Shown in pieces: positions 4,727 to 59,499 of a stretch of DNA of 64,000 nt. A program made the translations under genes and the position numbers. This DNA comes from Mytilus trossulus (taxonomy: Eukaryota), in the NCBI RefSeq assembly GCF_036588685.1, contig NC_086383.1, positions 12,276,001-12,340,000 on the forward strand. The letters run 5' to 3'. Below the pieces are notes generated by a model, which saw only the letters and a list, made by a program, of their open reading frames with translations, did no database searches and was not told where the DNA came from. Position 1 is the first letter of the stretch. Every line of letters starts with the position of its first letter.

Positions 4727-5045
4727 ATGATGGCCAAATAATGTGTAAACCTTGATGGCAATACATGTTTATCAGAAACAATTGTCCATAAAAACCAAAC
4801 GTATGAACCTTTATTGCCAGATACCTTGTTAATACCGAACAGAAATTATGATATCTTGCAAAACGTTCAAAATGCGAACAACACTTATATAAACATGACC
4901 AGGGGAAGAATAGAACAAAGGGATTGTTCTAAGGAGCACAATCAAACTTCTGAAAGATTTACTTGTTTTGCAATAACCCAGCGAAAGTTGAACACGATTA
5001 TTCTTATATCAAAATTTAAACTCAGAAGTCTTTTAACTTTGATAT
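4727..5045 (+). pseudogene. Disabled 5' part of the paralogue A cytoplasmic-tail exon
   Basis: Colinear with 35861-36181. It reads ATG ATG GCC AAA TAA (TCA>TAA at 4739), with a 1-nt deletion near 4971, an in-frame TAA near 5017 and a 2-nt insertion near 5047. Confidence 0.85.
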
Positions 5046-5271
5046 ATGTATGAGAGTATAGACGATCAAGAACTGAACCCTTCTCGTCGCGCCTCAACAC
5101 ATTTGACCAGCAGTTGTAGCAAATGTTTTACTTACAAAGGTCGACCAGGAAAATGTTTGGCTTGTTTCATATTTGTGTTTCTTTTGGCTGGTGTCATAGC
5201 CGGCATGAGTGTGTTTCTGTCACTGAAAAACAATTCGCAAGATCCCGACAACCAAAACACTCTGGCTCAAG
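5046..5271 (+). CDS. Paralogue A exon: YESI motif plus TM helix
   Basis: MYESIDDQ...KGRPGKCLACFIFVFLLAGVIAGMSVFLSLKNN...LAQG. Basic residues precede the hydrophobic helix (type II topology). Donor G|GTATTT, phase 1. Confidence 0.8.
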
Positions 5272-20200: not shown

Positions 20201-23200
20201 GTTTGATTAAAATATAGATGATCAAAACAAACTGTCTACGAATATTGTATATCTCCCAATAAAAGGCATGGTTTGAGAAACAGCCGTATTTACAAAGTGC
20301 AACCTTTAGTATTTGATAATTATTATCATTGCAATTAGATTGACAAATAAAGATTTGATTTGTCTGATAGAAAGAAAAAATCATTATGATGACAAAAAGT
20401 TTTGTCAAAATCGGAATTTCATATTTTACTTCAAGAAAACACTAATGAAATTATAGACCATGTTGTAGGTACTTTTATGCACGGCGTTTACTAACCACGG
20501 TAACTGCAAACATTTCTCAAACAAGTAGTTCTATCTAGACTGTGTTTAGTTTTTACTTCAGTTTCATTATGTATATCTCTTTCATATTCATTTGTTAAAA
20601 TTTACTGTTTGCAATAGTGTGAATTGTTTTATATAATATGAATGTTCTTATCCTGGGCATACAAACAATGCCGTATTTGGCAAAACCTTTTCAACTTTTG
20701 ATCTTCAGTGCTGTAAAATGTTGTATTTTTTTCGTCACTGGTGAGTCTCGTGTGGACTAGACGCGTTTTTGGCGTATTGAATTTTAAACCTGATGCTTTT
20801 TGTTATCTATTAATCATGCTTTTCTTTGTCTAATATGTTCTGCTTTTTATTTGTATTGTAGTCCTGTAATTTTTTGTTTTCATTTCAATGTTATATTTAA
20901 CTGTGCCATTAAAGTGCGAGGTTTGGCATGCCTTAAAACCAGGTTCAACCCACCACTTTTATTCCCCTTTAAAAGTGTCCTGTACCAAGTCAGGAAGATG
21001 GCCATTGTTATAATATTGTTCGTTTCTGTTTTCTCTTATTTTTGAGATAAGACGTGGCACGGTACTTGTCTATCCCATATTCATGTATTTGGTTTTGATG
21101 TTATATTTGTTATTCTCGTGGTGTATTGTCTGTTGCTTGGTCCGTTTCTGTGTGCTGTTGCGTTTCGGTGATGTGTCGTTGTTCTCCTCTTATATTTAAT
21201 GCGTTTCCCTCAGTTTTGGTTTGTTGCCCCGATTTTGTTTTTTGTCCATGGATTTATGAGTTTTGAACAGCGGTATACTACTGTTGTCTTTATTTAGCAG
21301 ACACGGAACTAACACATATAATCCTGATATATCCTACGATTTTGATATAATGTTTGCACTACAGTAATATTATTTTATTTTTTCTAGGGACACAATGCCA
21401 CAGTTCGCCTTGCTTAAACAGGGGAACATGCAAGACAACTGGTAGTAGTAATGTTTGTTCCTGCACAACTGGATACAGTGGAAAACAATGTCAAAGTGTG
21501 TTGGATTAGAATATAGGTTTACTTCTTTTGTTTTTTAAATTAAAGACAGCACAATGAATAATGTTTTCATTGGAAAGAAATATAAGACTGCTATCTAATA
21601 CTATATTTGTTTTATTTGTGTCTGCAAATAAAAATTATCGTAAAAAGCTACTGCCGGTACGTAAATATTGAAATATTAATACAAGTTACAAATAAAAGAC
21701 TTTAAAAATATTTCAATCAAACGCAAAAAGAAAGTGAAGAGATAAGGATATTAAACATTCCTAGTTACATTCATGCGTCATTTTTTGTAACTGCAAACTT
21801 GGAAATGGCGGTACGGATTTTATCACGATTAAACAATTTTATGTCAATATATTGTAGGATATATATACAATGATTGTACTTTAATAATGTTATTCTATTT
21901 TCATAGTCATACCATGCAACAGTTCACCTTGTGCTAATGGAAGTACATGTACACCGACCGGAAGTACTTTTGTTTGTTCCTGTCAACCTGGATACTTTGG
22001 AAACAAATGTCAAGGTGGTTACTTTAAAGGTGTCATTTCTTTAAATATGGACAATTCCATTTTTTCATAGGAGCTCTTTTTACGGCTTAAGCTGTACCAC
22101 TTTTACTATGAAGATTCCCAAATTATATCCTAGAATGGAACGCTTATTTGCACTACTATTTTCTCAAAGGTCAAGATATTTTCAACACTTCTATGTTCCG
22201 AATTTCTAAGAGTTTAAACTTATAATAAAATTCTGTAAAACCCATACCTTAACTTTAATTCACCTTAGAATTCAAGGCAGCCGCTTACAATGTTAATGTA
22301 TATTGGTAACATTCCCCATTAGAAGATACATAGAGATCATATCTGGAAACAAGTACGTTATCATAACAAACTATCTATAAATATTATATATCTCCCCAAA
22401 GGAGGCGTGCTGTGTGAAGCAGCTGTATTGACAAAGTGTAACCTTAAATAGTTGATCATTTTTATCATTGCAATTATATTGTCTATTACAGATTTTATTT
22501 TGTCTCATAGTGGCCATTGCCAACATCAGAAGTGCATATTTTACTTCAAGAAAACACTAATGATATCATAGAACATGTTGAAGATACTTTTGCACAAAAC
22601 AAAAAATTAAACCTTTTTTTTCATTACAAATTTTATTTATTACACTTTTAGTTATTACACTGATTCGGTTTGGCCCAAGATGACTTTTAAAATGTTTATA
22701 TCATTGAAAAAGCTCCAAATTATCTCCCCTTTTTGCAAAAATGTAATTTGTTTGGCATTAAATATGACATATCTTTTTTAACTGATCGGTGACCTATATT
22801 TTGTTTTCAAATAATAACCGCGGTAACTGCAAACACTTCTAAAACAAGAAGTTCTATATTGACTGTGTTAAGCAGGCAGACAACCAACACATATCATCCT
22901 GTGTTAAGCAACTATTCTTTTATATCCTATTTTTTTTATTAAATGTTTGCAATCCAATAATATCATCTTATTTTTTCTAGGGACACCATGCCACAGTTCG
23001 CCTTGTTCAAATAGGGGAGCATGCAATCCTTCTGGTAGCAGTTTTGTTTGTTCCTGTCCAACTGGATACAGTGGAAAACAATGTCAAAGTGTGTTTAATT
23101 AAAACATAAGTTACTTTTGGTTTTCTTAAATTAAAGATAGCACAAGAATACACTTTTTCTTAACTTTGCCCAATGAATTTTGTTTTCATTGAAAATAAGT

Positions 23201-26200
23201 ATATAAGACCGCTATTCCCCCAAAAAATTTAATTCGTGTTTACTTCTATCAACCATCAGAAGAAGTCATTGCTGGTACGTAAATATTGAAATACAAGGTA
23301 CATTTTTACAAGACTTTTAAAATACTTCAGTCAAACATAAGAAGAACGTGAAAAGAGACAAGGATACTAAAAATTCCTACTTACATTCACGCGTCATTTT
23401 TAGTTACTGCAAACTTGGAAATGTAGGTATTGATTATCTCCCGACTATGTCGTACTCATAAAAATAAATACAGGAGATTTTCACCTACACGAATAGCTGA
23501 TACAAATCAAGCAATTGAATAATGAAGTCAATGTATCATAAATCTTATCTCAATACATTGTTGGATATAGATTCAATGATTGTACTTACATAATTTTATT
23601 TATTTTCTAAGTCACACCATGCCACTGTTCACCTTGTTCGAATGACATGAAATGTACACCGACCGGAAGAAGTCTTGTACAATCAAAAATAGTAAAAAAG
23701 ACCTAGTTGTGTGTACATCGGCATATGACTAGAAATGTTCATGACAAAACTGCAAAATTATTGTTATACTGTGTAAAAAAATTCAAGATGTAAAGGTAAC
23801 ACCAATTATAATCGCGATATATTTCAAGGTTTAGGGATAATGATTTCACCTAGATTCTGTTATTCAACTTTTGTAGTCACACCATGCCATGGACAATGCT
23901 TGAATGGGGGAAGGTGCACAACAACTAACAATGGTTTTGTGTGTTCCTGTCAAACTGGATTCTCTGGATACCGATGTCAAAGTATGTTTCAATATATTAA
24001 TCGACAGTGGGGTTTATTTAAATCACAATGGAATAAAATTGTCATAGCATTTAAAAAGACATAAGTGTGTAGTTTTACTGTGAGGGCGTTTAAAAACTGG
24101 CTTTGAGGGTAACACATTTTTTTAATTATAAGCCGCTAGCCTATTGTTTTGTCCCGCAAGAGTACAGAATCCTTAAATACACAAACAAAGTTAGATGCTA
24201 GTAATGTTTATTTCTTAAAACAAACGAATAAAAGGTTTTGTAATGCTCTTGTGGCAAAATATAAAACAAATCGATGGCCATAACTAATAGAAAACTCGCT
24301 AAACCTCACGACATTCCACAAATGGCACAAAGAAATTTTATAGCATAGAGTATTACGAAATTCTTGAATATTAAGCACAAAGTAGCTTTGTGATATCGGT
24401 CTGGCATTTTTCTAAATACGGTTATATTAATGAAAATGTAACCGTTCTTGATTAGCGTTAGTATATATATCATATCATTTAATATTTTGTAAAGTGTGCT
24501 CTCATAGTTAAAAAGTGAATTTTCCTACTCTAATTTGGTCGACAATCTCGTTTTTTTTCTTTCTTAATTCTCAATAAATCATTTTTTACAGTTCGACCGT
24601 CATGTCCCTCTGGTTGGAAGATGAACGAAAAAACATGTTATTATTTTAGCAGTGAAAGCACAGATTGGTATAGTGCCAAGGTTGTCAAGATTTGTCTTCT
24701 TTAAGTATTTACAATTAAATGTTTCAAAACAATGATTCAAGCTACTGAACCTTCGGATGAAAGCAGCAGTAAAAAAAGTTTTTAATTCATATTGTCAAAT
24801 ATTTGAAAGAAAACTAGAGAAGTAGTCTAGTGATTAGAGATACCTAATAAAGATTGATTACCCAAACATATTAAGGATGTTTGCTTCTCTCGTTTTAAAA
24901 TTTTGCCAGATATTTGGAATCCACGAATCCACGTAAGCGAGTGGGTTATGTTGTGTTAACTAACGAAACCAAATTTAATTGTATATCAATTACAGGCGTG
25001 AATACCGATTATTAAATAGAAAATAGTGTGCATGTAAAACTAAGACGCTCATGTCTTTGAAGAAAAGTACACTCTTGCTTAGCAGATGAAACCCTAATTT
25101 GTTCAATTGCTCCAATAAAAAAAGAATAATTAATGATTAAATCTTAAATCTTAATAAATAGATAATAGAATTTTAAGAAATCAATAGAATATAGGCTATG
25201 ATAATTATAAATCATACTACGCAAACCTTTTGATATTAATCTCCTCGAGATGGCTGAAAAAAATATTTTAAAAGCGAGATTCCTTACTTAGGTTCCAACT
25301 CCCTCTGGCAAAGTTGACCTTACACGAATTTTGCCATCACTGTTATGTTCCTTTGGTTGCATAGCTCTTCGATATTCAATGTTGTTTGATATTTATCAAT
25401 CGTTCCTGATTATCAATTTCGCGAGCATTTTAAAACTAGAATATTTTAATATTGAGGGTCAATAAATCTAGTTATCAACAAGATAAAACAGATAGAATTT
25501 GCAGTTCTATGTTCACGCATCATTGTAAATATAACGTAATTTGAAGAGATTGTCGTAAACGTGAGAAGTTAAGCGCTATAAAACCGGGTTCAATCCACCA
25601 TTCCTACATTTGAAAATGCCTGTTCCAAGTCAGGAATATGACAGTTGTTGTACATTCGTTTGATGTTTTTTGTCATTTGATTTTGCCATGTGATAAGGGA
25701 CTTTCCGATTTAATTTTCCTCTGAGTTCAGTATTTTTTTTTAGTTTACTTTTTTATATAAATGAATTGCTCAATGTTATTGTCTAAAATCAACGTATGGC
25801 ATATCAAAATATAATTCACTGGTCAAAACTGGTTTAAATGCATACGGTTGAAAGTTTTAACCTCTGAAGAATTATTAAATGTGGTTAAGGTTATTCACAA
25901 TTTTTGTTTCTTTGAAATAGTTATCAAAGGTACCAGGACTATAATTTAATATGCCAGACGCGCGTTTTGTCTACTTAAGACTCATCAGTGACGCTCATAT
26001 CGAAATAGTTATAAACCAAACAAATACAAAGTTGAAGAGCATTGAGGATCCAAAATTCCAAAAAGATGTGTCAAATACGGCTAAGGTAATCTATGCCTGG
26101 AATAAGAAAATCCTTAGTTTTTCGAAAAATTCAAAGTAGTTTTGTATACAGGAAATTTATAAAAATGACCACACAATTGTTAGTTATGTCAACACCGAAG

Positions 26201-27161
26201 TGATGACTACTGGGCTGGTGAAAACCAGCTATTGAATGCTATGAATTTAACACAGTTTTTCATCATTACGTTGAATGTTTATCGTGGTTTACATTTTTAC
26301 TCTCCAGTCTTCTTGTCAATGGCGTAGCAGTATGCTTGCAGAAGTAACAACACGAAGTAAGATGACGTTTCTAAGGACAAACGCACAAGTAAATGGGGAA
26401 AGTATGTACCTGCCATTGGAAAATTGCAGTTGTTAAATATTTATTTCTTACAAAATTACACCCGTGAGGTGTATCTATATTAAAATAATATAAGTGCGTA
26501 AAATTGGTCAATACTTAACGTGTCTAACATGTTTCGAACACCTTATGCACATGATGATTCCAAATGACAATCAAATTTTAAGAAGCTAAGAATATTTATT
26601 CATATATTAATGAATCAAATGAACTGATTAATAAATGTATTAAACCTCATTTATTTTAATGTACAGTTAATGGTTCAAACTTTGAAAATCTCTTTTATAG
26701 CTTCATTTTCCTTCTGATCTCCAAGCTTGTTTACTGGCATACATAAGTGTGTCAACTACGCTTTATAAATGTATCCCTTATATATTGCCATAATCTTTTG
26801 TGTTAAAAGCAGTTATCTCAAATTCTTTTAATTTATATAACTTTTAATAAATAGTAGTATTGTTTTTATGAAAAGTGCAGTCTTGAGTAACACGTCGTTT
26901 ATTCATTCTAAAACAAATGCTCTTTCAGCTTTTTGGCTTGGTGGATCAGATGAGGCTCATGAAGGTGTGTGGGTATGGACAACTAGTGGACAGAGGTTTA
27001 CAGGAACGGATTGGCATATACGTACTAAACACGAACCAAATAATCAGGATGGAAACCAACATTGTCTCAACATTCATAAAAGATTGGACTTTGAATGGAA
27101 TGATGAAAATTGTGGGATTGATTATCGCTTCATATGCGAAAAACCGTTAGTATATTCTTGA
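5046..27161 (+). CDS. Paralogue A: type II membrane protein, short tail-TM-5xEGF-C-type lectin (predicted 392 aa)
   Basis: Join 5046-5271, 19763-19870, 21388-21495, 21907-22014, 22981-23088, 23877-23981, 24592-24680, 26308-26401, 26929-27161. All introns are GT-AG, phases are compatible, and the 1179 nt run open to a stop. The start codon is uncertain and the copy may be a pseudogene. Confidence 0.7.
6640..6850 (+). repeat. Interspersed repeat (retroelement 3' tail-like); further copies at 10640-10735 + 18278-18378 (+), 36960-37215 (-), and a variant at 46380-46580 (-)
   Basis: Shared core GCGGTATGGGCTTTGCTCATTGTT.AAGGCCGTACGGTGACCTATAGTTGTTAAT...GGCAATCATACCACATCTTC. Confidence 0.8.
7022..7446 (-). 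mobile_element. 3' fragment of a Penelope-like retroelement (end of RT plus tail)
   Basis: Encodes FQMVKLKSSLRKFYGRHHELVDRY; homologous to 18508-19010 and 37245-37640. Confidence 0.6.
8436..8912. repeat. 32-bp minisatellite, ~15 copies
   Basis: CAAGGTATATACGTGTAGTATACAATAGT(T/A)AA recurs at 8436, 8468, 8500, 8532 etc. Confidence 0.97.
9012..9055 (-). ncRNA. Intact minimal type I hammerhead ribozyme within a retrozyme-like repeat (~8985-9190)
   Basis: Reverse complement GCGTCA CTGATGA GTCT-TTTGT-AGAC GAAA C-GCGC-G TC^TGGCGT has the full core, stem I GCGUCA/UGGCGU, stem II GUCU/AGAC, a 2-bp stem III with a palindromic loop, and a GUC cleavage triplet. Confidence 0.9.
9978..10085 (+). pseudogene. 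Paralogue A EGF exon with a mutated acceptor (probably skipped)
   Basis: ETPCSREPCLYNGTCTELGNLPTCACSDGYNGSRCE is open and the donor is intact. The acceptor reads TTTTAA where paralogue B has TTTTAG (42717). Confidence 0.8.
11672..11846. mobile_element. MITE nested in the CACTA element
   Basis: TIRs ATACACCTTTTCGCTATT / AATAGCGATAAGGTGTAT. Confidence 0.6.
12403..13348. repeat. ~259-bp tandem repeat, ~3.6 copies, inside the CACTA element
   Basis: GGTCAGTTTT anchors at 12432, 12691, 12951 and 13208, with colinear flanks. Confidence 0.92.
13826..13985. repeat. ~39-bp short tandem repeat rich in GTTAAC palindromes
   Basis: AAGTTAACTTATGTTAACTTTGTGGCAGGACTGGTTTCG occurs about 3 times plus partial copies. 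Confidence 0.8.
16278..16500 (+). mobile_element. Helentron/HINE-like non-autonomous element, 5' fragment
   Basis: TT-AAGCTCACCTG start, a (GTCC/GTCGTCT)n microsatellite, then a core repeat containing AAGATGGCCGCC. This layout is typical of HINE/DINE-like elements. Confidence 0.55.
18508..19010 (+). mobile_element. Penelope-like retroelement RT C-terminal fragment plus tail
   Basis: NFPFLCSNIPAAPAHGVYIFKLIRH...YHDFLDRGLLLTRKLLNKEFQMVKL, then a stop; resembles the PLE RT thumb region. Confidence 0.65.
19763..19870 (+). CDS. Paralogue A EGF exon
   Basis: AG|..|GT, 108 nt, phase 1-1; VTPCHSSPCSNGGECTPSGSSFECSCPTGYFGSQCQ (6 Cys). Confidence 0.9.
20733..20775 (+). ncRNA. Degenerate hammerhead motif in a retrozyme-like repeat
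   Basis: CGTCACTGGTGAGTCTCGTGTGGACTAGACGCGTTTTTGGCGT; core mutated. Confidence 0.5.
21388..21495 (+). CDS. Paralogue A EGF exon
   Basis: 108 nt; GTQCHSSPCLNRGTCKTTGSSNVCSCTTGYSGKQCQ. Confidence 0.9.
21907..22014 (+). CDS. Paralogue A EGF exon
   Basis: 108 nt; IIPCNSSPCANGSTCTPTGSTFVCSCQPGYFGNKCQ. Confidence 0.9.
22981..23088 (+). CDS. Paralogue A EGF exon
   Basis: 108 nt; GTPCHSSPCSNRGACNPSGSSFVCSCPTGYSGKQCQ. Confidence 0.9.
23612..23678 (+). pseudogene. Truncated EGF pseudo-exon
   Basis: TPCHCSPCSNDMKCTPTGRSLV, after which homology ends. There is no donor and a stop follows at ~23704. Confidence 0.8.
23877..23981 (+). CDS. Paralogue A last EGF exon
   Basis: 105 nt; TPCHGQCLNGGRCTTTNNGFVCSCQTGFSGYRCQ; donor A|GTATGT. 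Confidence 0.9.
24592..24680 (+). CDS. Paralogue A C-type lectin exon 1
   Basis: RPSCPSGWKMNEKTCYYFSSESTDWYSAK, the long-form CTLD start (CPxGW...CYYF). Confidence 0.92.
25951..25994 (-). ncRNA. Hammerhead motif with G12>A, in a retrozyme-like repeat (~25918-26222)
   Basis: Reverse complement GCGTCACTGATGAGTCTTAAGTAGACAAAACGCGCGTCTGGCAT. Confidence 0.75.
26308..26401 (+). CDS. Paralogue A C-type lectin exon 2
   Basis: CAG|SSCQWRSSMLAEVTTRSKMTFLRTNAQVNGE|GTATGT; 94 nt. Confidence 0.9.
26929..27161 (+). CDS. Paralogue A C-type lectin exon 3 (terminal)
   Basis: FWLGGSD..EGVWVW...EPNN...HCL...WNDENC....FICEK; WIGL-like, EPN and WND motifs present. Confidence 0.95.
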
Positions 27162-31020: not shown

Positions 31021-31080
31021 TCTGTATGAGAAAATGTTGTATTACATATCAATTGTTTATTTTTGGAAATAGTAAAATTT

Positions 31081-31465
31081 GAGATTGGATGTGACCAAAA
31101 AGTGTATATGATTACCAAATCATGTTCAAACCTTGATGAACAAAACTTGTTCATCTTGATGGAAATTCTTTCTCACCAAAACCAATTTTCGATGAAAACC
31201 AAACGTATGAACCTGTAGTGCCAGACGACATTGTAATATCGGAGAGCAATAAGTATACCTTAAAAAACGATGAAAATGTTAACAACATTAATACACACGC
31301 AAACAGTAGAAATAGAGAACATTGCGATTGAACAAAGGAGCACAATAAACTTCTAAAAGATTTACTTTTTGGGATAAAAACACTGCAAATGTTAAACAAA
31401 ATAATTATCATATCGAAATACAAACCTGGATGTCTTGTAAATCCGACATAAATAAGAGTATTGAC
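31081..31465 (+). pseudogene. Orphan third copy of the receptor cytoplasmic-tail exon, truncated before the TM
   Basis: Aligns with 4703-5063 and 35838-36196 (KNQTYEPVVPDDIVI..., AAGGAGCACAAT, AGAGTATTGAC); contains stops and indels. Confidence 0.8.
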
Positions 31466-32695: not shown

Positions 32696-32696
32696 A

Positions 32697-35860: not shown

Positions 35861-36368
35861 ATGATGGCCAAATCATGTTCTGACTTTGATGACAATATTC
35901 GTTCACGACAACACACTTTTAAGAAGAACAAAACGTATGACACTTTATTGCTAGAGGACTTGACAATATCGAGGAGCAGTTATGATACCTTGCAAAACGA
36001 TCAACAATCCGAAAACATTATTAAAAACACGAGCAGTAGAGCAATTGAAAAAAGAGATAGTACAAAGGAGCACGATCAAACTTCTGAAAGATTTACTATT
36101 TTTGATAATAACACAGCAGAGGTTAAACAAGATGTATATCATAGCGAAATGCAAACCCGAACTTCTTGTAACTCTCACACATACGAGAGTATAGATGATC
36201 AAGCAGTGCATCCTACTAATTGCGCTTTACCACATTTGAACGACATTTGTAAAAACCAAATAACTGTCAAAAGTCGACGAGGAAATCATTTGGCTTGTTT
36301 CATCTTTGGATTTCTTTTGGTTTGTTTCATAGCTCGAACAACTATGTTTGTGTTGCTGAAAAACAATG
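35861..36368 (+). CDS. Paralogue B first coding exon: ~143-aa cytoplasmic tail plus TM
   Basis: Open frame containing YDTL-x11-YDTL, HTYESI and KSRRGNH-LACFIFGFLLVCFIARTTMFVLL-KNN. Donor G|GTATTT is the same as in paralogue A. Confidence 0.85.
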
Positions 36369-39300
36369 GTATTTATCAATTTTAATAACATATTTGTTTA
36401 CCACTCATATATTACTTGCATACCGATTTTATCCTTTTTTTTCTAATTAGAATAGAATTAAGATTGCAATAGTTTCTAGAGTAATGTAACAGAGTTTGAA
36501 ATTGGAATAAAACTATTTGCCTAAATTTCTGTACCGTCCGTTCTGTACTACGTACAAGCAACTACAATTAGAAAGAGAGTCTTCCATAATTTTTTTTTTT
36601 AACTTAAACAAAAATCTACACTACTTAAAACTAATTATCTAGATTGTTCAATCCATAATGACTCGCTTTCCTAGTTATTACCATTTTACTCTTTGATGTT
36701 ATCTTTCACCTTGTAACAGTCGGCAGTAAAATCTATTCTTGGTTATTGTCGAACACACACCTACCATTTATGAGGTAAGCAAACTATTGCAAGACTATCG
36801 ATGATAAAAACCTTGTTTGTAGGTTTTGTTCTGTTATTTTTTATTTGATTAAAAAATATTTGAGATTGGAATAGAATAAAACATGTATGTGATGGACACA
36901 TCATGTTCTAACCTTGATGGAAATACTTGTTCACGACTAAATCTTTATCGTTCAAATCATTATAAAAAAGAAGATGTGGTATGATTGCCAATGAGACAAC
37001 TATCCACAAAAGACCAAAATGACACAATCATTAACAATTATAGGTCACCGTACGGCCTTCAACAATGAACAAAGCCCATACCGCATATAGTCAACTATAA
37101 AAGGCCCCGATTAGACAATGTAAAACAATTCAAGCGAGAAAATTAACGGCTTTTTATGTAAACAAATAAATGTAACACATAAACAAACGACAACCACTGA
37201 ATTACAGGCTCCTGATCGTTTTCAATGGTCACTATTCTAATATGTTAGATATTCCCGTGCTTGTATTTCCTACCATGATTTTCTTGATAGAGGATTGCGG
37301 CTCACAAGCAAGCTATTAAACCAAGAGTTTCAAAAGGTAAAGTTGAAATCATCCCTTCGTAGATTAGATTGTACGGACGCCATTACGAGTTGATTGATCG
37401 TTATGGAATAACCAATTCACAGATAATACCGGATATGTTTCTTACGTCGTAACTACAACCCCCTTCCCTCTCATGAATGTGACCTACCGATTTCAACTAT
37501 TTACCGGATTTGTTATAATATGAGCAACACGAAGTTGTTTGTTTGTTTGTCTTTTTCATTTTCAGCCATGGCGTTGTCAGTTTAGGATTTCGATTTCAGA
37601 GTTTGACTGTCCTATTTGGTTTCTTTCGTTCCTCTTTTATCATTGTCATTTCCGTAGTTCGTGTAGTAGACAGTGTAACCTTATAGTAATAGTTGCATTA
37701 TTACTCTGGCTCTAAAGAAAAAAATGTACATCTTAAAACATCAAGAATCTTAATGTTGAACGAAATGTAGGATTTGCCAGGCTAATAAAACAACAAATGA
37801 ATCAGGAAGATAAAATGTGATTTCTTTTGCATTCAAGTGAATCCCTTTTTTAAGGGGTCGCGTGGGTATAAATTTTATTTTGTTCAAATATAGAATTTTC
37901 ATATCGATAAACGTTATCCTATTCTAAATTGAAAAATGAAATAAAAATATGTGGTCACCGTTTATTTAAAACTTTTTTTAGTCAGTTTAGTTTACGTACA
38001 GCTTATTTGAATAAAAAGAATAATCAAAAAATATACGTCACCGATGAGTTAAAAAATAATGTTTTAGTTTAAATGCCCCAAAAAGGTATTTTTTATACCA
38101 AAGGGAGATAACTTGGAGCTTTTTTCAATGAAATAAACATTTTAAGTCTTCTGGGGCAATCACGAATTGATCTTTTTGTTTGATTTTTGTAACATATCGC
38201 AAAGTAACAACTAATATGTATTGTAATTGAGTAATTGAAGAAAAATTGGTGGCCTTCGGCTGTTGTCTGCTCTATGGTCGGGTTGTTATCGCTTTGACAC
38301 ATTCCCAATTTCCTTTCACAATTTTGATAAAAAAAATTTGTAATAAAAAAAATGTCCTTTTTTTTTATTTGCTGAATTTTTGGTATCCTCGAGCCTCCTT
38401 AACTGTATTTGACCGTAATTTATTGTAAACAACTATTGACGTATTAAAGATAATCATTCAAAATGATTTAGACGAGTTGTCATAATTAATTGAAAACTAT
38501 GACCCGTTCACGATAACATGCACATAACTAAAATCAGTGATAAGTGTTGTCTTACCTAGCATTTCAAATTACTATGGGGTGCGTAGATGTAAACATTTCT
38601 GTTCAACATTTGAAGAAGTTTAATTTTATTTTTTCAGAAAAAGAAAAAAGTCTGTTGAATAATGATTTGATTTAATGTTCGTTAAATGTAAAAGAGTTTT
38701 ATAAAACTTGTAACTTATTTTTAACCTCTTAATGTTTTCGGTTATTACGTTGTGATTGCGTTGTCAGTTTGTTTTAGATTTACGAGTTTGACTGTCCCTT
38801 TGGTGTCTTCCGTCCCTCTTTTATACGATTTGCTTATCTACAAATATTTGAATGTGCTTGGTCTGTAATAATTTCTTTACTTGTTAACATTTCAAACGAC
38901 AATTTATCCAGGACTACTTTGATAACCTATGTTTAAACTGTGTCAATTTAAGTTTAAATGATATATACATGCGCGATACGTAGACAGTGAAATTAAAAAG
39001 AGATTGGTTGAGACGTAATCGGATAGAATACATTTTTTTACAGGTTTTTGCCGTGTTAACTTTGTCCTTGCAAAATCAATTAAAAAAATGCAATGACTAT
39101 ATCGAATTCATGGATATATCCGTATTAATTAATTGGTAAAATTACAGCTATCATTTCATTAGACTCATCTATTTCAATTCAAGTAAATATGTTCTACATG
39201 CTACTCCGCCTTACATACAAAAAGATGTTGATTTTTGTTTAAGTATATGGAATTTCAAATTTAAAAAGATTTAGGGAAAGGAAGGAGTTAAAATGACATG

Positions 39301-42300: not shown

Positions 42301-45300
42301 ATAAGTTTGAAACGTTTAAAATGATGACATACCAATATAAAGAATCGTTCATCATTTTTGAAAAAGACTATGAACAATTATCGAATTATTTATCTTCTCT
42401 TGATGAAAGAGTGATTGGGAAATGAACCAGCGTTAACAAATGGTAATCACAGAGAGGGACCGGGGAGCAATATTTTATTGTAGCTTATACAACGTTACAA
42501 CAAATATCCACTGTAAACGAATGTTACTTTATACAAATATAAGGACTTTGTTAGCTAAATCTACAAATTTTATTAGATATCACTATTTTTTATTGCAATA
42601 GATTAATATGCTAAATAATGTACGTCAACATATCTTTTGCGCGTGCTATAGGTTGAATGGGGAAAATTTCATTAAATTATCTCTTGGTAATATACCCCGG
42701 TATATGTTTTCTTTTAGAAACGCCGTGTTCTAAAGAACCTTGCTTCTACAATGGAACTTGGACTGCACTTGGGAAATTACCTATCTGTGCTTGTAGTGAT
42801 TGATACAATAGATCCAGATGTGAAGATTGTAACATTTGTTAGGTGATAAGCAACGAATTCAAAATATGTTTACAGAATAAATGTTTGGTGTCTGGGTGCA
42901 AACATTTTACTTATTGGATACATGTTTCAAAGCATTAGGAAACATTCATGAAATTTAAATAGAGTATGCCTAATAGAAAAAGAAACACACTATGGGGACT
43001 TGAAATCAATTGGGCAAAGGTCAGGGTAACATACAGTACAAAAAATATAAAACCTCAGCTAAAGTTATGTTTTTTGGAGTTAATTTTTTACAATATGTCA
43101 AAATTTTTCGATACGTTGTTCGAAAATACACAATAGAATCAAAATCAACAATAAGTTTGGAAAGCATTTTGTTATCTTTTGAAGCATGTTTAATTGTATA
43201 TCAAGTCTATAAAGTCAAAAGTAGTTGACTTGCATACAGTATTTGACTCGGTAAAACCATATTTGAGTACACACGGCATATTCATTTAGATGGGAAATGG
43301 TGTACTTTTGACACCACCCCCCCCCCCCACAAATAAAAGATAATGTATAAGCTTTGAATTTCAAATAGTTTGGCCATGAGCATCATTAAAGAGACATAAA
43401 TTTTCCTCGGAGTTCAGTATTTTTGTGTTCTTACTTTTTTTAATATTCACGAAAATATTTGTCAAAATCGAAAGTACATATTGTACTCAACGGAAACATT
43501 AATGAAATCATAGATTATGTATTTTTGCCCACAGTTTGTAATAGCCTTGGTTACTGCAAATATTTTTTAAACAAGTAGTTTCATCTAGACTGTGTTGAGC
43601 AACTATTCTGATATATCCTAGGATTTTGATTAAATATTTACACTCCAAATATGACATTTAATTTTTTCAGGGACACCATGCCACAGTTCACCTTGTTTAA
43701 ATAGAGGAACATGCTAGCCTTCTGGTAGCAGTTTTGTTTGTTTCTGTCTAACTGGATACAGTGGAAAACAATGTCAAAGTAGGTTTTGTTAAAATATAGG
43801 TTAACTTTCGAGGTTTTAAATTAAAGATGGCACAAACAATACATTTTTTTTTAAATAAATGAAATATTATGGCTACATTACCCAATGAATTTTGTTTTTA
43901 CTAAAAAAAGTATAAGACTGCTATTTGAAAAAAATAGTCTCATTCGCGTCTGCATATTACAAAAGAACATGAAAAGATATAAGGATACAAAACATAACTT
44001 CTTAAATCCACACGTCATTTTTTGTAAATGTAAACTTAGAAATGTCAGTACAGATTTCCCCCCGATTATGTCGTGATCACGAAAAAAGTTAAGAAGCTGG
44101 TTCAAATAAACCAATTGAATATTGAAGTCACGGTTGTAACAATTGTTATTTCTATATATTGTAGGATATTGATACAATGATTGTACTCAAACAATTGTCT
44201 TTTATTATCATAGTCACACCATGCAACAATTCGCCTTGTTCAAATGGGGGAGAATGCACGACAGCTAGTAGTAGTTTTGTTTGTACCTGTCCTTCTGGAT
44301 ACAGTGAAAACCAATGTCAAGGTTAGTCACTTTATAGGATGCATTTCTTTCACTATAGATAATTTAATAACCCATAGGAACTCCTTTTAAATCTGAAACT
44401 GTACACTTTTACCATGAAGTTTAAAAAACTTACATCCTAGAATAGAACGCTCATATACACTACAATTTTTTTCAATATAAAACTGTGCGGATCATTCTAC
44501 ATTTATATGCCTCCAACTTTAAAAAGTTGGAACATATACTAATATTCAGTGCTACTCCTACCTTAACTTAGAATTTACCTCAGCATTTAAGGCGGCCGCT
44601 AATAGTGTTAATGTATATTGGTAACATTCCCAAGCTATGTCTTTATTGGGAAGATACATAGAGATCATATCTTTGAACCAGTACGTTATCAAAAGAAACT
44701 ATCTATGAATATTATATATCTCTCTAAGAGAGGCTTGGTTTGTAAAACATCTCTATTTAAAAGTATTTGATAATTTGTATTATTGAAATAAAAATGACAA
44801 AAACATATCTATTGTGTTCGATAGCGGTAATTGCCAAACAAAGAGAAGAATGCATTATCATGACGAAAATATTTGTCCAAATCTAAAGTTCATATTGTAC
44901 TCAACGGAAACACTAATGCTATCATAGATTATGTACTTTAGCGCACAGTTTGTAATAGCCGCGGTTACTGCAATTATTTCTAAAATAAGTAGTTCTATCT
45001 AAACTGTGTTAATCAGTCAATGAACCGACACAACTATTATGATATATCCTAGGATTTTTATTAGATATTTGCAAATCAATTATATAATTAATTTTTTTAG
45101 AGGAACACCATGCCATATTTCTTCCTGTTTAAATAGGGGAACATGCAAGCCAACTGGTAGCAGTTTTGTTTGTTCCTGTCCAACTGGATATAGTGGAAAA
45201 CAATGTCAATGTATGTATGATTAAAAGTTAGGTTAACATTCGGGTTTTTAAATTAAAGGTGGCACAAAACATACACTTTTTTCTAAATAAATGAATCATT

Positions 45301-47964
45301 ATGACTACTTTAACCAATGAAATTTGTCTTCATTAAAAATAAGTATAAGACTGATATTTAAAATGGAATCGTCTCATTCGCGTCTGCATACGACAATCGG
45401 CGAGAGGAGTTACTTCCGGTACGTGAATATTGAGATATTAATATTAGTTACATATACAAGACTTTTAAAATATTTCAATCAAACGTAAAAAGAACGTGAA
45501 AATAGATAAGGATACTAAAATTACTTCTTACATTCACTTGTCATTTTCTGTTACTGCAAACTTGGAAATGTCGGTACTGATTTTCTCCCGGTTATGTCAT
45601 GATAACGAAAAAATGTAGGAAGCTAGTTCAAATAAACCACGTGAATAATGAAGTCACGGTTGTAGCAATTCTTATGTCAATATACTGTACTCAAACAATT
45701 GTCTTTTATTATCATAGTCACACCATGCAACAGTTCGCCTTGTTCGAATGGGGGTAAATGTACTCCTACCGGAAGTAGTTTTGTTTGTTCTTGTCAAACT
45801 GGATATAGTGTAAAACAATGTCAAGGTGGGTAACTGTATATGATGCATTTTTTTTATTTTATAGACAATGCAAGTACCCATAGGAACTCCTTATGTTATT
45901 TTTATGGTTCAAAAATACCCTTTTTATTTTAAATAAATGAAATATTATGACCACTTTACCAAATGAATTGTTTTTGAATGAAATAAAGTGTATGACTGCC
46001 ATAAAAATAAATCCTCTCATTCTCGTCTGCAAATATCAACTTTAGGATGAAGTTACAGCTTGAATACGAAATCAAAGTTCCTTGTTCTAGCCTTTGCAAA
46101 ACTTCAATCAAACGTAGAAAGAGATCGGGAAACTAAGACCGCAATACCTAACAAAAATCGACGAACAATAGAATTATATTAAATAATCTAAATATAAAAT
46201 GTAAAACAAAACATATTTCACCTAAACGGATTTCGACATTTTATATTACAGGGATAACAACTTATATTTGAACAACAAATACAAGTTGTGTGACATACGT
46301 TCTGTTTGCATGCTAGGGAAGTGTACGTTTACAGACAGTTCCTGCGAATACAACAATAATAACATAGACCATAGATATAGGAAGATGTGGTGTGAGTGCC
46401 AATGAGACAACTCTCCAACCAAATAACAATTTAAAAAGTAAATCATTATAGGTTTAAGTACGGCCTTCAACACGGAGCCTTGGCTCACACCGAACAACAA
46501 GCTATAAAGGGCCCCAAAATTACTAGTGTAAAACCATTCAAAGGGGAAAACCAACGGTCTAATCTATATAAACAAAACGTCTACATTAGCATTAGCATAT
46601 GACTAGGAATGTCCACGAGATAACTGCAAACTGTTGTGTAATTGTGTTATATTATTACTGTGTAAATAGAAGTGAAGGTAACAACAATTCAAATCGCGAT
46701 ATATTTCATGATTTTAATATAATTATTGCACTCTGATTCTGTTATTACTGATATTTTAGTCACACCATGCCATACTTCACCTTGTTTAAATGGGGAAAGG
46801 TGCACACCAACTAGAAATAGTTTTGTTTGTTCCTGTCCAACTGGATACTCTGGAAACCGATGTCAAAGTTTGTTTCATTAGAACATATGACTAATATATT
46901 AATGGACAGTAGGGTTAATTCAATGCACAATGGAACAAAATATACATAATCATTTAGAATAAATAAATGTATAGTTTTACTGTTAGGGTGTGTAAAAACA
47001 TGATATGAGGGAAAAACACTGTTTTTATGAAATGGCGCTGACCTTTTTCTGTTCCAAAAGAGCAAAGAATCCTAAACTACACACACAAATTAGATGCTAT
47101 TAATTTGTAATTCTTAAACCAAACGAATAAAACAAATTGAAATGCTCGTGTGGCAAAAATAAAATAAATCAATGGCAATAAATAATAAAGAAAACTCACT
47201 GAACGTAACGACATTCTATATATGACCACAAAGATATTTACTAACATAGAGTATAACAACATCGTTAGGTTAAATAGCTTTATAATGTCTGTCTGGATTT
47301 TTTTTTCTAAACACGGTTACATTCAAGAGGAATTAACCATTCTTGGTTAGATTTCGTGTTCATATATCATATTATCTATTATTTTGTATAGTGTGCCCTC
47401 GTTGTTAAAAAAGAATTTTCCTGCTCTTATTCCGTCGACAATCTCATTTTTTTCCTTTCTTTATTCTTAATTAATCGTTTTTTACAGTTCGACCTGCATG
47501 TCCCTCTGGCTGGAAGATGAATGAAAACGGTTATTATTATTTCAGCATTCTCAGAGCAAATTGGGATTATGCCAAGGTAGTAAAGGTTTGTAATTCTAAG
47601 TTCTTACAATAAACGTTTAAAAACAATAAATCAAACCACAAAACATTCAATAGGAACTAACAGTAAAAAAGTTATAAACTATTTGAAAGAAAACCAACAG
47701 ATGTAGTCTAAAAGACAGATAGATAATCTAAATATATTAATTCGCTTGTGATATCCAAAGATTTCACATTGTCTTACAATTTGTCTATAATAATGGTCAA
47801 CTATTCAATATTCATGATAAAGAACAACAATAAGTCAAATTCAAGTTGGACATTTGTTTTTGCCATGGATTAATTGGCCAAGCAAAAAACAAATACTTAA
47901 CCTTTGAGGTGTTATACGATACAATATCCTTGTTATTGGACTTATCGTTTTTTATCTTGGTATC

Positions 47965-48033
<69 letters not shown>

Positions 48034-51000
48034 AAACTTTGAATAATCAATAAGGTGTTTTTTTTAAGATTCTCTCAATTGATTTATGATTTTTGGGCAG
48101 TTGTATACTACTGTTGATTGTATATTGTTCGTATCCAATCCAATAGCATTACAAAGTTGTTTTTGTCCTTTTTCCGCAGATAGATATGGTTCTGTTTGAT
48201 GTTGAATGGTCCAAATTAAACGCAGTTTTTCGACATAACGTTGTAGTGTTCATATTTGTTTGAATTCATACAAATTTGTATTTTCAGATTTGTTGTAAAA
48301 ACTTAGGCAGTATGCTAGCAGAAGTTACATCAAGAAGTGAGATCGTATTTCTTAGGACAAATGCAAAAAAATATGGTGAAAGTATGTAACTGCTATTGAG
48401 TTTTTTTCTTTCAAATATTTAAATATCCAGTAAGGAGTCGTAAGGAACGTTTTTGTCGTGTGCAGGTTAAGTTTCAATTGTTTTAAAACTTCTTGAATCA
48501 TAATATGTTTATTAAAAGTGCATTATTGAACTCCAAGTATGATAAACGTTACTATAGATATACACACGAGAATCCAACAAGAGCATTGACTTCTAAAAAC
48601 ATTGTCGTAGATGTTCTCCTCGGTTTTAGTTGGTAACCCGGATTCGTTTTCCTTCGATCGATAAATGACTTCTGAAGAGCGGTATTGCCCTTTTTGTCGT
48701 GCGTGAGTTAATTCTCATATACTTTTAATTTTGTTGAATAATAATGTAACAATTTCGCTATAAGATAAAGAATAGTTATCTCCCTTGTCCTTATTTAATT
48801 TTGTTATTAGTTTAATATTTAAGTAAATTAAAGTTGTAATATATGATCTTTATAGGTTATCACTTTTTATAAATAGCCTTTAATTATCTTGGAAAAATTC
48901 GGAGTATAAATAAATATTTTTGAAGAAGGAAAAATATATGTTACCTTTGTATCGTAAATAATTAATTTATACATATCATTTAAGTTCAAATTATGGTTTG
49001 TCTTCAGACCAGTAGCTAATGTAAGGCTCACAATTAATATAGTATTCAGTTTTTACTGACACTAGGTTTGTCAAGGTAATAGACCAAAGATGTAGAAAAG
49101 TTATTTCTATAATTTTGAAAGTCCTTTCCTAAATACTACCACAGCGTGTTCTTTTACAGTCTTTAAAATTTAAAATATATTAAAGTATTTAATACAGTTC
49201 TAAATATAAACCAAAAGCTATAAATAAGAGGTCAAAACAAATACGGGTTATAAAACTTTAGGTCCACTCGAATACTCAAATTTATCTTGAAATGTAAGTA
49301 ATTGTTATACTACTCAGAATACTATTTTACTATTGTTAAACTTATAAACTGTTGAATTTAATTTACCTTTTAGACAATTTTACATTTGTTGATATTGTAT
49401 ACTGTTTTTGTTGCTTTACATCATGTTTATTTAATACAAATATAAACATCTTTATTATCTTTTTATCCTATTGCCATAGCTCAGTTCCCTGAGAAGAACT
49501 ATAAGAACTGAGATAGTCTAATGATCTCACTTGGCATCCATCGTCAACACATTATATAGATATCAGTATATTTGGTGTATAGAGTCAGATATCTCAGTTA
49601 TTAACACGACATAAACAACTAACTAGAGGGGACGGAAGAATCCAAGCCCGACCCTCCTGTTACAAAATTTGGTGGCCAATGTGGGGAACTGAGTTGAAAC
49701 CTTGGCAGTATTTAAAAGGTATCAAATAAGATAAAATTTAAATTAAGTAAGACAAAGAAATATTCTAAATGTCTTCTAAACAAGATATAGGGGCAACTGG
49801 AGGATTGTCGGTTAAAACAGATTCAAAACGAGATTCTGACTATTTACATAGACTTATTTCAAAGTATAGAGACAGTACTAGTCTTGACGAGGGTATGCTA
49901 GATGTAAGCGAAGAAGAAGTGAAATTTGATAAAGGAAAGATAACTCCTAGTAAAAAAAGTTACGAGTTATACGGCGGTGATAGTTTAGAGTATAATAGAA
50001 CACCTCGCGAAGATAAACAAGAAAGAAGCGTTCCACGGTTAAGAGACGAACGTGATAGATATGCATTACCGAGTTTGCACAGCAGAGATTTATTAACCAG
50101 AACTGAAGACGCAATAGGGTCGAAATCGTCGGTGTTCGGTTTAAGTAGAGGAAACGATTTCTATGAAAAACATAATTTAGACACGCGATATAATATGCGC
50201 CCGACAAGCGAAACTAGAGAGTTATCTGTTAAGACGAAAAAGGAAAATGAAAAAGGGTCTCCAGAATATTATCAAAAGTTAGTAAATGACTTGTCGACTA
50301 TTCAAAGAGAACTCTTCGGTACCGAAAACCCGCAAAGCAAATCAGATTATAGGTCTCCGAGGCAAACCTCTGAACGGAATTCAGAAACGTTAGAGAGGGC
50401 CGAAAATAAGACCATACAAACGACAATGCCGAATCCAAAAGTCAATGATCAATCAAATACTGTTGAAAGTAATGGCAAAACGGGTCGTACAAAGACACAA
50501 ATTACGAGACGCGAGAAAGAACCCGAAAAATTCGATGGAAAGTCTATTGACTGGAAGGACTACATAGTCCATTTTGAAAAGACCGCAACGTGGAATCAAT
50601 GGAACGAATGTGACAAAGCGCAACAATTGTCAATGAGTTTAAGAGGCTCAGCACAAAAACTGCTTGGTGATTTGCCACCGGAAGTAGTGAATGATTATGC
50701 AAACTTAAAAAGCACACTAGCACAGAGATTCAATCCGAAAGAGCGTGTTACAGCATACAGGTGCGAATTTAGAACCAGAACGCGAAAACCCGGAGAGTCT
50801 TTGCCAGATTTTGGGTATGCGTTGAGGCGATTAGTTAGATTAGCCTACCCGGAAGGAGAATATAATTCGGTCCTTGAACAACTAGTAATAAACCAATTTA
50901 TACTAGGTCTCGGAAATTTCGAAATGGAGAAACATGTGCAGTTTGCGCATCCTCAGACTTTACAAGCAGCAATAGCTTGCGCCGTCGAATATGATGCATT

Positions 51001-54000
51001 CACTAGTGCACAATTCAATCCTCGTAAACCGAAGGAAGTAGACAATTCTCCAGGTCTCCCAATAAGAACAATTAATAAAGATAAAAATGAATTAAGGGAA
51101 AATTCAAAAGTAGGAGAAGCTAAAGACAATAAAAGCCCAAATCCAGATTTAAATACATTAGCTAGTACACTGAATAGTTGTATAAAACAATTAACTGAGA
51201 AATTAGAAGATTTAGGTAAACAAAACCCCAAAGCTAAGATTAAATGCACCATATGTGGTAGAGAAAACCACACAGCAAGAGTTTGTTGGCATAGTGAAGA
51301 AAACCAGAGAAAAAGATCTTTTAATAGGAATAATAGACAAGGGCAAGACGATAAGACTAAGAATAAGCAAGGGGGAAACGATGATGAGGGAAACTAAATA
51401 GGGCTGAGGTTGAGGCCAAAGGTTCAGTCCAAAAGTTAACATTTGAAGAAGGGCCAAAAATTAGTATAAATTCAGTTACACAAAATTGTCTTTTCGTGAA
51501 AGTTACATTACAAAAACTCAGTTTTAAATTTTTACTGGACACTGGGTCAGCTGCTAGTATAATTGACAAGTCAGCATTTGATAAGTTAGGGATAGATACT
51601 TCATTACTGCAAAAAGTTTTAACAACTTTGACATCAGCAGAAGGAAGTCAAATGAAAATATATGGAAAAATTCCATTGAAGTTTAAATTAGGAAATAAAG
51701 TTTACACCCATGATTTTATAGTTGCTGATCTATACAATATGACAGGGTTGTTAGGAATGGATTTCTTTGAACAATATGAAGTAAACATGCAAATATCAAA
51801 TTTGACAATGACCATAGAAGGTTATAAAATTAAATTGTTCAAACAGCCATATAATTCATGTGCTAATGTAAAGATCAGTAAGCTAATGGTTATTCCCCCT
51901 GATAGTGAATATACAGTGGAGGCTTATATAAAAGGAAATGTAGAAAAAAAATTAACAATTCTAGAGCCTTATAAAAGTTTACAGAAGAGAGGGTTATTAG
52001 TGGCTAGGTCTGTGTATGATGCTTCATCGGAAGTCGTTCAAATAAATACTATAAACTTAACAGATGAAACTATAATCCTAGATAAAGATACTTTGGTAGG
52101 TAGGTTAGAACCAGTTAAGTCTATAAGTACGTTAAATGACATACAAATGGATTCAAATCTTGAAACAAACAAGAATGATAATATCCCTGAACATTTAAAG
52201 GTTATGATAGAAAAGGCATCGTTGGAATTAAAAAATGAGGAGAAATTAAAGTTTCAAAATTTGATACTTACATTTCAAGATATTTTTTTAGGGCCTGACT
52301 TAAAATTAGGTAGAACAGATCTTGTAAGTCATTCTATTGATACAAAAAATGCAAAGCCAGTTAAGATACCTCCGCGTAGGATACCAATATCTCAAAAACA
52401 GGTAGTCGAAAAAGGAATAGATCGTTTATTGGAAGCAGATCTTATAGAACCAAGCAATAGTCCGTGGTCCGCCCCAATTTTACTAGTTACTAAAAAGGAC
52501 GGAAGTATAAGATTCTGTGTTGATTATAGGGGACTTAACTCTGTAACTGTAAAAGATTCATATCCTTTACCTAGAATTGACACGTCATTAGATTCATTGG
52601 GTGGGAATAGGTGGTATCATACAGTTGATTTGGCTTCAGGATATTGGCAATGTCCCATGGAGCCTGACAGTAAAGCTAAAACAGCTTTTTCGTCACATAA
52701 AGGGCTTTTCCAATTCAAGGTATTGCCAATGGGATGGTGTAATTCAGCAGCAACGTTTGAAAGGTTAATGGAGTTAGTACTTAGGGGTTATCAATGGATT
52801 CGTTGTTTATGTTATTTGGATGATGTCATCATTTTTGGTCCAGATTTTGATTCTGCTTTAGAAAATCTACGATTAGTTTTTGAACGATTAAGGTCGGCAA
52901 ATCTTAAATTGAAACCAAGTAAATGTTCGTTTTTTCAGAAAGAAGTGTCATTTTTAGGGCATGTTGTGTCAGAGAAGGGTATAGGATGTGACAAAAGTAA
53001 GATTGATTCAGTTCAAAAGTGGCCAATACCAAGAACTATGACAGAAATCAGAAGCTTTTTGGGATTAGCAGGGTACTATCGAAAATTTATTCCAAATTTT
53101 TCTGAGGTTGCCTCCCCATTGACCAGGCTTACAAAAAAGGCTGTAAAATTTCAGTGGGATACTAGTTGTCAAAATGCTTTTGAAAAATTGAAAGAATCAC
53201 TTGTTTCAGCTCCTATATTAGCATATCCCGAAGGGGAAGGGGAATTTATACTAGATACAGATGCCAGTGGCAGTGGGATAGGCGCTGTGTTGTCACAATT
53301 TCAGAATGGAGAAGAGAAGGTCATATCATATGCTAGCAAAACATTAAATGATGCGCAAAGAAAGTATTGTACAACAAGGCGAGAGTTATTGGCAGTAGTT
53401 ATGTTCGTGAAGTATTTTCGTCATTTTCTTTGGGGTAGGCATTTCAAAATTAGAACGGATCACGCCTCCCTAGTATGGTTGAAAAATTTTAAGGACCCTG
53501 AAAGTATTTTGGCACGTTGGCTAACTGTCCTAGATACATATGATTTTACTTTAGAACACAGAAAGGGAAGTCTGCATACAAATGCAGATAGTCTTTCCAG
53601 AAAGCCACATAGACAGTGTCAAAGGTTGGATTGTCCAGATTGTACTAATAATAGTGTTGTGAAGATAAGTAAGAGTGTTGACTCGACTTATTCACCTTCT
53701 AAACGGATTTTACAGTCCGACCAGGAGAAAACACAAAAATTAAAACAATCAGAAAAATGCGGTAAAGTCTTGGCATTACAAGAAACAAATGATGGATCGA
53801 ATTGGTTAAAAAACTGGTCAACTGAGGAAATGATTAAATTGCAAAAAGAAGATGTAAGCATCGGGAAAATTTTGGAGTTAAAGACAGCATTTGAAAACAA
53901 ACCCCCTAAAATTGAAGTAGAGGGACAGGCTTATGGGTGTCGAGTATTATGGAGTCTCTGGGAATCATTGTTTGTGAGAGAAAATTTGTTATATCAAAAG

Positions 54001-58888: not shown

Positions 58889-59499
58889 CATTGGTTTTAT
58901 TTCACTGATAAAGAATTACATTTAAAAATCTAGAAAATATGTAAGTATTAAATTTACAATTTTTTTCTAAAGACAGTTTACATACAAGATATTACACTTA
59001 ATGTGAACAATTAAAATTTACAAACTGCTTGCAATGAAATCTTCAAAACTGTGTTTCATGTGGGCTTAATTTGTTACTCTGTATTGATTTGAGTTTGTAG
59101 TAACTGATCCTCGGAAGAGTAATGTCATCCTTGTACTATGCTATTCACAGACTTGTTCATAGTTAAGTTCTGATGATTAAGATTTGTGCAGAAATAAAAG
59201 TGTTCCAATAAAATATTGTTCTGTTGTGGCTGCTTTTATAATTAGGTATTTACAATTGAACTGGGCAAAAGTATCAGAAATATTCGAAAGCTAAATGATA
59301 AGTATTATTTTTCTGTATTTATGGTATATAAAGCTACAAATAAGCCAATGCAGTCTCTTTTTGGTACCGTTTTCAAAAAGAGACTGCGAAAACTATTTCA
59401 ATTATTTGATTGAACAGACATTTGTCAATTGCTTCATGCCTATTACAGTGTTACTTTAATTTCAGATTGAATTGAGTTGAATATTGAAGCAAGAACAGA

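Follow-up and report, generated by a model that had tools for sequence, protein, structure and literature searches.

Introduction

Dectin-1 and CLEC-2 are receptors of type II order that combine a C-terminal lectin domain, a short stalk and an N-terminal hemITAM tyrosine coupled to Syk; Drosophila Draper is of type I order. Syk predates adaptive immunity, and just a few invertebrate receptors engaging it have been described. In the oyster, the available sections of two reviews report that the lectins CgCLec-HTM and CgCLec-TM1 signal via hemITAM, Syk and ERK, and leave EGF unmentioned for both (PMC12842671, PMC13027682). CgIgR recruits CgSyk through a two-tyrosine ITAM (PMC6994640, available part), and mollusc Syk is described as activating in the accessible portion of PMC13344425. 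The Draper ITAM, given as YXXI-X11-YXXL in the accessible text of PMC13148388, binds Shark, and Draper isoforms with an altered or missing ITAM are reported there.

We analysed a stretch of 64,000 nucleotides (the window, G000:C11:12276001-12340000) of the 1.3 Gb genome of the mussel Mytilus trossulus, in which a sequence-only reading had placed a type II C-type lectin receptor with an EGF stalk and tyrosine motifs in its tail. The literature searched, with subscription papers largely outside it, held no account of this Mytilus receptor family. The accessible text of a bivalve lectin survey mentions neither EGF, ITAM nor tyrosine, and its Figure 7 presents uncharacterised bivalve-specific multidomain lectins, among which this architecture may appear (PMC10140915).

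Results

The first exon of gene B (35861..36368; all features given by window position lie on the forward strand) is open from the ATG at 35861 to a phase-1 GT donor at 36369, is covered by contigs, and encodes a predicted cytoplasmic tail of 140 residues, a polybasic stretch and a single transmembrane (TM) segment. The tail carries an ITAM-like pair, Y26DTL-x11-Y41DTL (35936..35992; Y26 at 35936, Y41 at 35981), as well as HTY108ESI (Y108 at 36182), both as the sequence-only reading had noted. Unremarked in that reading was a second tyrosine pair, which occurs in most relatives and is broken in gene B, leaving the remnant H94SEM-x10-Y108ESI (36140..36193): position 94 is His in B and Tyr in 13 of 15 sequences. 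The complete form, Y94xx(I/L)-x10-Y108xx(I/V), is matched in L002, L004, P0011, P0020, P0022 and P0025. All 14 full tails, which come from five species of Mytilus, have the first pair, YxxL/I-x9/11-YxxL, with a spacer of 11 in 12 of them and of 9 in two orthologues, and both of its tyrosines are invariant in these 14. We took the ITAM consensus, YxxL/I-x(6-12)-YxxL/I, as quoted in the available part of PMC6994640; this pattern arises in 0.6% of 20,000 shuffles of the gene B tail. The quoted consensus also has an acidic residue at Y-3 (D/ExxY), which is missing here, position -3 being mostly N or S. Most relatives have D or E at -4/-5 before the first tyrosine, and gene B has none.

The TM segment (residues 146-166, 36296..36358) is the one hydrophobic segment of the exon, and an N-terminal signal-like stretch is absent. 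In each of the 18 sequences compared, the N-flank of the TM is more basic than the C-flank, which in B and L002 is just three residues long. Because there is a single TM with the more basic flank on its N-terminal side, and because the disulfide domains lie C-terminal to it, type II (N-in/C-out) is the consistent reading; this predicted topology, together with the domain order TM-EGF-lectin, fits the type II order that had been claimed. The same charge bias and domain order rule out an extracellular N-terminal tail. The TM of gene B also holds Arg159, where the other 12 of 13 sequences have G, S, V or C; since B alone carries it, a role of Arg159 in adaptor pairing was dropped as a family trait.

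We then compared the tyrosine motifs with the rest of the tail in an alignment of 15 tails from five species, from which P0013, P0014 and P0023 were omitted as near copies and P0018, P0026 and P0028-P0033 as partial, fused or unnamed sequences. Tail identity to B ranges from 36 to 77% among 13 sequences. Y26, Y41 and Y108 belong to the invariant columns, of which there are just 10 in 139; besides the start Met, the other six (N56, D66, E70, T79, Q98 and S102) are without explanation. Simulation on the fitted tree gave a chance of invariance of 0.136 per Tyr column, from which a chance of ~0.009 is derived for three of B's four tyrosines being invariant, a value that is slightly generous because the first 60 residues are missing from one row. 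Three Yxxx windows, named beforehand, differ in 31% of pairs versus 52% overall (permutation P ~0.002), which places the conservation of the motifs above background. Among six paralogues of the same genome, the pooled uncorrected pN/pS falls from 0.93 outside the motifs to 0.62 in the motif codons (24 codons, of which six were picked after the alignment had been seen) and to 0.52 in the TM region. Dead copies of the tail have lost Y41 in three of nine cases and Y108 in three of nine, with two copies unaligned at Y108. In a ranking of site rates, the three tyrosines place just 22-25 of 139. Taken together, the sequences indicate that the paired tyrosines are kept by selection on an otherwise almost neutrally evolving tail.

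Contigs cover 35791-36368 and jump at 36368, right at the donor, in frame into an EGF exon. This joint occurs in runs X1, X3 and X4 (three of four runs, from two studies); the RNA status of the runs is guessed, none of those with the tail exon being recorded as RNA, and the short side of the joint, 25 letters, was found at 82% likeness. The sequence-only reading implied that the tail exon is spliced to EGF exons, and this is seen in RNA-like contigs. The receiving exon begins TC ACA CCA and is identical to no exon of this haplotype. Since the tail-exon contigs are ~94-98% identical to B and the closest paralogue is at 89%, they represent alleles or orthologues of B. EGF-to-EGF joints are also present in the contigs. 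No EGF-to-lectin joint occurs among the 15 of 353 joints listed, so that the link between EGF and lectin exons rests on annotated models: full TM-EGF-lectin gene models with a B-like tail are found in M. edulis (P0012-P0014) and M. coruscus (P0011), and tail-to-EGF models in M. galloprovincialis (P0025/P0034).

In the window, the tail/TM exon of gene B is followed by six EGF exons of 108 nt each (phase 1-1) and by three lectin exons, whose EGF and Lectin_C Pfam matches bear out the proposed EGF-stalk C-type lectin. Intron 1 contains the start fragment of a dead tail exon (36840..36931). The first EGF exon (42718..42825) is dead, with a TGA, a Cys-to-Trp change and no GT donor. The second (43671..43778) has intact splice sites and an in-frame TAG, and must therefore be skipped for a full protein. 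The remaining four lie at 44214..44321 (108 nt, phase 1-1; Pfam EGF E=6.7e-9), 45103..45210 (open, with an in-frame acceptor GAG right behind a TAG), 45718..45825 (E=6.8e-8; joints enter it) and 46760..46867 (the last, E=1.9e-8). Lectin exon 1 (47488..47576) has a Cys-to-Tyr change at a position that is Cys in paralogue A and in eight of eight database relatives; it is followed by lectin exon 2 (48288..48381) and by lectin exon 3 (58638..58858), which carries QPN and WND (Pfam Lectin_C E=4.1e-11). A likely last coding exon, IELS-stop, is placed at 59466..59480 by similarity to the last exon of gene A. The lectin domain scores above the PF00059 cut-off and has the motifs WLGG, QPN and WND, with one N-terminal Cys missing. 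From the EPN/QPN and WND motifs, the lectin domains of the family would bind sugars in a calcium-dependent manner.

Between lectin exons 2 and 3 lies a Gypsy/Ty3 LTR retrotransposon (48745..58472) with identical LTRs of 920 bp, a 4-bp ATAA target duplication and open gag and pol. The element is apparently intact and very young. It has two extra ORFs (56332-56712 and 56746-57294) with weak C2H2 zinc-finger matches; an A-run lies between pol and its 3' LTR.

In this haplotype, gene B may be a weakened or decaying member of the family. Two of its six EGF exons are dead, its lectin domain has the Cys-to-Tyr change, the TM has Gly replaced by Arg159, position 94 is His, acidic residues upstream of Y26 are missing, and the Gypsy insertion adds 9.7 kb; its terminal branch is 0.19 long, compared with 0.06-0.07 for its sisters, and its closest lectin paralogue, the L003 gene, is already dead. 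On the other hand, exon 1, all of the lectin exons and four of the EGF exons have open frames and splice sites, a transcript that skips the dead EGF exons would stay in frame, and there are contigs 97-98% identical to the B exon, above the 89% of the nearest paralogue. That a working receptor is no longer made from this haplotype, the motifs being relics of functional alleles, has in our estimate slightly under an even chance. This possibility is compatible with any reading of receptor function, and is thus an alternative at the level of the locus.

As the term family in the sequence-only reading anticipated, gene B is one of a series: eight tandem gene units ending in lectin exon 3 lie at C11 12.198-12.445 Mb, with EPN in six of the eight, QPN in two and WND in all. 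Scattered among them are at least nine tail exons that are dead or partial, and the number of EGF-exon matches per gene ranges from 4 to 27. Paralogue A has a dead tail/TM exon (4727..5271), broken by a frameshift and by a stop, TAA, at codon 5, in which the tyrosine motifs YEPL-x11-YDIL and YESI persist as had been read. Its EGF exons, the first of which lacks its AG acceptor and one of which is truncated, and its three lectin exons (EPN, WND) span 9978..27149. A dead tail-exon fragment, C (31046..31465), has lost Y41 and Y108. Several parts of the window are low-complexity: an 18-bp tandem array at 32617-33819 (~1.1 kb) is open in several frames, and similar arrays lie at 1-766, 8436-8913 and 12404-13347. 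Elsewhere in the cluster, the paralogue with 27 EGF-exon matches (G000:C11:12393242-12414242, L036-L038) consists of tandem repeats that are nearly identical, a few of them interrupted by stops; it would encode a very long stalk or serve as an array for alternative splicing. At G000:C11:12198759-12213651 (P0003), the same EGF-lectin ectodomain is joined to an unrelated tail without ITAM that is kept in three other Mytilus species; it is a candidate non-signalling or paired partner.

An exon of ~600 open codons, 1.4 kb upstream of the window (G000:C11:12272789-12274599, L005/L030), consists of seven tandem units of ~71 residues, each copying the ancestral N-terminus, followed by a normal TM and a phase-1 donor. 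Six of the seven units have a complete YE(P/S)L-x11-Y(D/A)xL. The same repeat is open in M. edulis P0018, and its 3' end is found in P0030 on the same contig. As there is no EGF exon between the seven-unit exon and the dead first exon of A, the EGF and lectin exons of A are its likely ectodomain, to which it would be joined. Contigs of runs X1, X3, X4 and X8, compared with its last two units and TM, leave the unique part uncovered and are uninformative on expression. Pfam matches on this exon (HCS_D2, Glyco_transf_10 and others) were rejected as repeat artefacts. A second multi-unit tail exon, dead, inverted and ~85% identical to the seven-unit exon, lies on the minus strand at G000:C11:12385210-12386392 (L007/L035).

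Relatives were gathered via the lectin exon, an alignment and a full HMMER scan. The scan, of 1.84 billion representatives, returned 12 tail matches, of which five are unnamed and all named ones are Mytilus; a search with the tail alone for homologues among longer proteins scored none of 139 candidates. Since the tail is found in Mytilus alone among the named matches, an independent, convergent origin of the receptor family is plausible. In the databases these genes are hidden by names such as Notch-like, Delta-like, versican, perlucin and THBS2S.

The tail also occurs with other ectodomains. The tail/TM exon is found again on C7, where a TSP1 exon and a domain of 215 residues come after it with phase-1 junctions throughout, an arrangement present in five species. 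This C-terminal domain has a weak PRY match (E=0.007) in one of seven C7-type or fused proteins and an Atlas score of 0.91 for SPRY, and in a low-confidence model (pLDDT 37) PRY-SPRY and L-type lectins tie at Z 10.9; it may be a SPRY-like or an L-type-lectin-like beta-sandwich. In M. trossulus, three tandem units of TSP1 and SPRY-like domains lie on the minus strand at G000:C7:30173481-30211483 (L046-L050), and their tails have an extra insertion with further tyrosines (YERF/YQSL-x10-YDST). P0011 combines TSP1, EGF and lectin. P0027, a single gene model, has thyroglobulin repeats with the tail; no thyroglobulin exon occurs in the 344 kb of C11 or the 100 kb of C7 examined, so that a fusion of gene models may account for P0027. 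The tail tree sets the EGF-lectin group apart with 99/98 support and needs no more ectodomain changes than the minimum of three; it gives neither their direction nor how often they recurred. By these comparisons the tail/TM exon appears to behave as a phase-1 cassette with an exchangeable ectodomain.

The genome also holds candidate partners. A Syk locus at C1:86.34-86.37 Mb has N-SH2, C-SH2 and kinase exons in order, and the best match of its N-SH2 is Syk (E=3.5e-17). A SHP2 gene is present. No Shark was identified among the 24 of 54 SH2 matches that were translated. At least eight SH2 matches lie within 450 kb at G000:C11:33.98-34.43 Mb, possibly an expanded SH2 gene array; the one that was translated resembles the PLC-gamma-like SH2 of L108.

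Discussion

We consider it probable that gene B and its relatives encode type II membrane lectins, as predicted here, whose paired tyrosines serve as an ITAM recruiting Syk once a glycan-bearing target clusters the lectins. The lectin domains would bind glycan on the target and so bring the receptors together, a Src-family kinase would phosphorylate YxxL-x11-YxxL, and the tandem SH2 domains of Syk (or Shark) would bind the phosphorylated pair; ERK/NF-kB output and phagocytosis would follow, as they do in the haemocytes of the oyster. EGF exon number (4 to 27) would set the reach of such a receptor and ITAM number (none, one, two or six) its gain. Signalling through Syk and an immune, 'pattern-recognition' role are putative, with the oyster ITAM/hemITAM-Syk receptors as precedent. 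Against the ITAM/Syk reading, P0003 has the same ectodomain without the motif, the acidic Y-3 is absent, the tyrosines place just 22-25 of 139 by site rate, and the six other invariant residues are unexplained.

The tyrosines could have other uses. YxxL is also an endocytosis consensus, and type II uptake lectins such as ASGPR and MGL bear YxxPhi motifs in their N-terminal tails. YDTL, YEPL and YESI all match YxxPhi, and mussel lectins are expressed mainly in gill and digestive gland according to the available text of PMC10140915; the proteins might then be uptake lectins with endocytosis or sorting signals. Sorting signals need no fixed partner, however, yet the pair keeps a spacing of 11 in most tails, was amplified six-fold as a unit in the seven-unit exon and keeps acidic +1 residues. 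We regard sorting as an unlikely full account, and endocytic and kinase roles can coexist. Still less probable, and the weakest of the readings weighed here, is an inhibitory or mixed tail that recruits SHP2 via ITIM/ITSM-like tyrosines. The sequence-only reading had fitted SSYDTL to the ITIM consensus: the fit in B stands and SHP2 is present in the genome, but the second tyrosine matches in just 6 of 14 tails, and the residue at Y-2 of the site varies freely (S, T, G, I, Y or C), in a column that evolves comparatively fast (rank 109 of 139). Of 20,000 shuffles of the gene B tail, 13.7% yield an ITIM match, so that the fit alone is not above chance; the range over shuffles is 14-30%, and just one of the seven repeated units of the seven-unit exon matches. 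As far as motif comparison goes, the tail motif is an ITAM-like cassette, and the ITIM reading is not supported.

A different function altogether is conceivable, in which the receptors serve adhesion or recognition outside immunity (in feeding, with gametes or in relation to the shell) and the tyrosines dock other SH2 adaptors. YENI/YENV in two paralogues resembles a Grb2 site. Bivalve C-type lectins are also used in particle capture and gamete recognition (PMC5549309, accessible part). The paired motif has Draper spacing, which argues against a non-immune role, as do the variable stalks and the many dead copies left by tandem birth-and-death turnover. Such turnover is typical of immune receptor clusters, and we judge a non-immune role improbable, if less so than an SHP2-recruiting tail. 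The ITAM/Syk reading is the one we retain.

On a wider view, Mytilus may have built a modular immunoreceptor system, in which one exon serves as an ITAM cassette for varied ectodomains (EGFn-lectin, TSP1-EGFn-lectin, TSP1-SPRY-like and perhaps thyroglobulin repeats), with stalks of 4-27 EGF exons and none, one, two or six ITAMs; we put this forward tentatively and hold it to be rather doubtful as a whole. A six-ITAM receptor would be made by splicing the seven-unit exon past the dead first exon of A onto A's EGF and lectin exons. CD3 zeta has three ITAMs; if the splicing holds, this single-chain receptor would have twice as many. Most striking in the picture, and least tested, are two candidates, the shuffled cassette and the exon with six motifs. 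This farmed bivalve genus offers a natural series, one arm of which is a shared ectodomain carrying 0, 1, 2 or 6 ITAM-like motifs and the other a shared tail on different ectodomains. With this series one can test if signal strength outside vertebrates depends on ITAM number, and how Syk versus Shark read wide-spaced ITAMs.

Among known systems, selectins and group XIV proteins (thrombomodulin, CD93) also join lectin and EGF domains, but they are type I with the lectin N-terminal to EGF, whereas the mussel order is TM-EGF-lectin; they are leads only, because the nearest Atlas look-alikes are all below 0.9. Dectin-1 and CLEC-2 share the type II order, the C-terminal lectin and the N-terminal tyrosine motif with the mussel proteins, which differ in their two-tyrosine motif, often in two pairs, in the EGF stalk and in EPN/QPN with WND. 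Vertebrate group V (Dectin-1/NKG2) has a short or coiled, non-EGF stalk; with an EGF stalk the mussel receptors are not members, and by analogy they would work like group V type II receptors without belonging to the group. To the extent that the available sources describe them, three invertebrate systems come close. Draper, of the CED-1/MEGF10 family, has an EGF-like ectodomain and an ITAM with the X11 spacing of the mussel tails, but has an NPXY site and no lectin domain, and a sequence relation to the mussel tail is not shown. CgIgR is likewise a mollusc receptor with a full two-tyrosine ITAM, in its case with five Ig domains, a C-terminal tail and an x8 spacer. CgCLec-HTM and CgCLec-TM1 are, like the mussel proteins, bivalve membrane lectins with a tyrosine motif, but theirs is a hemITAM with a single lectin domain, and HTM has a C-terminal TM. 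Lectin receptors coupled to Syk through tyrosine motifs are therefore already described in the oyster, and the mussel family, on present sequence comparison, is a variant of the ITAM/Syk-coupled receptors.
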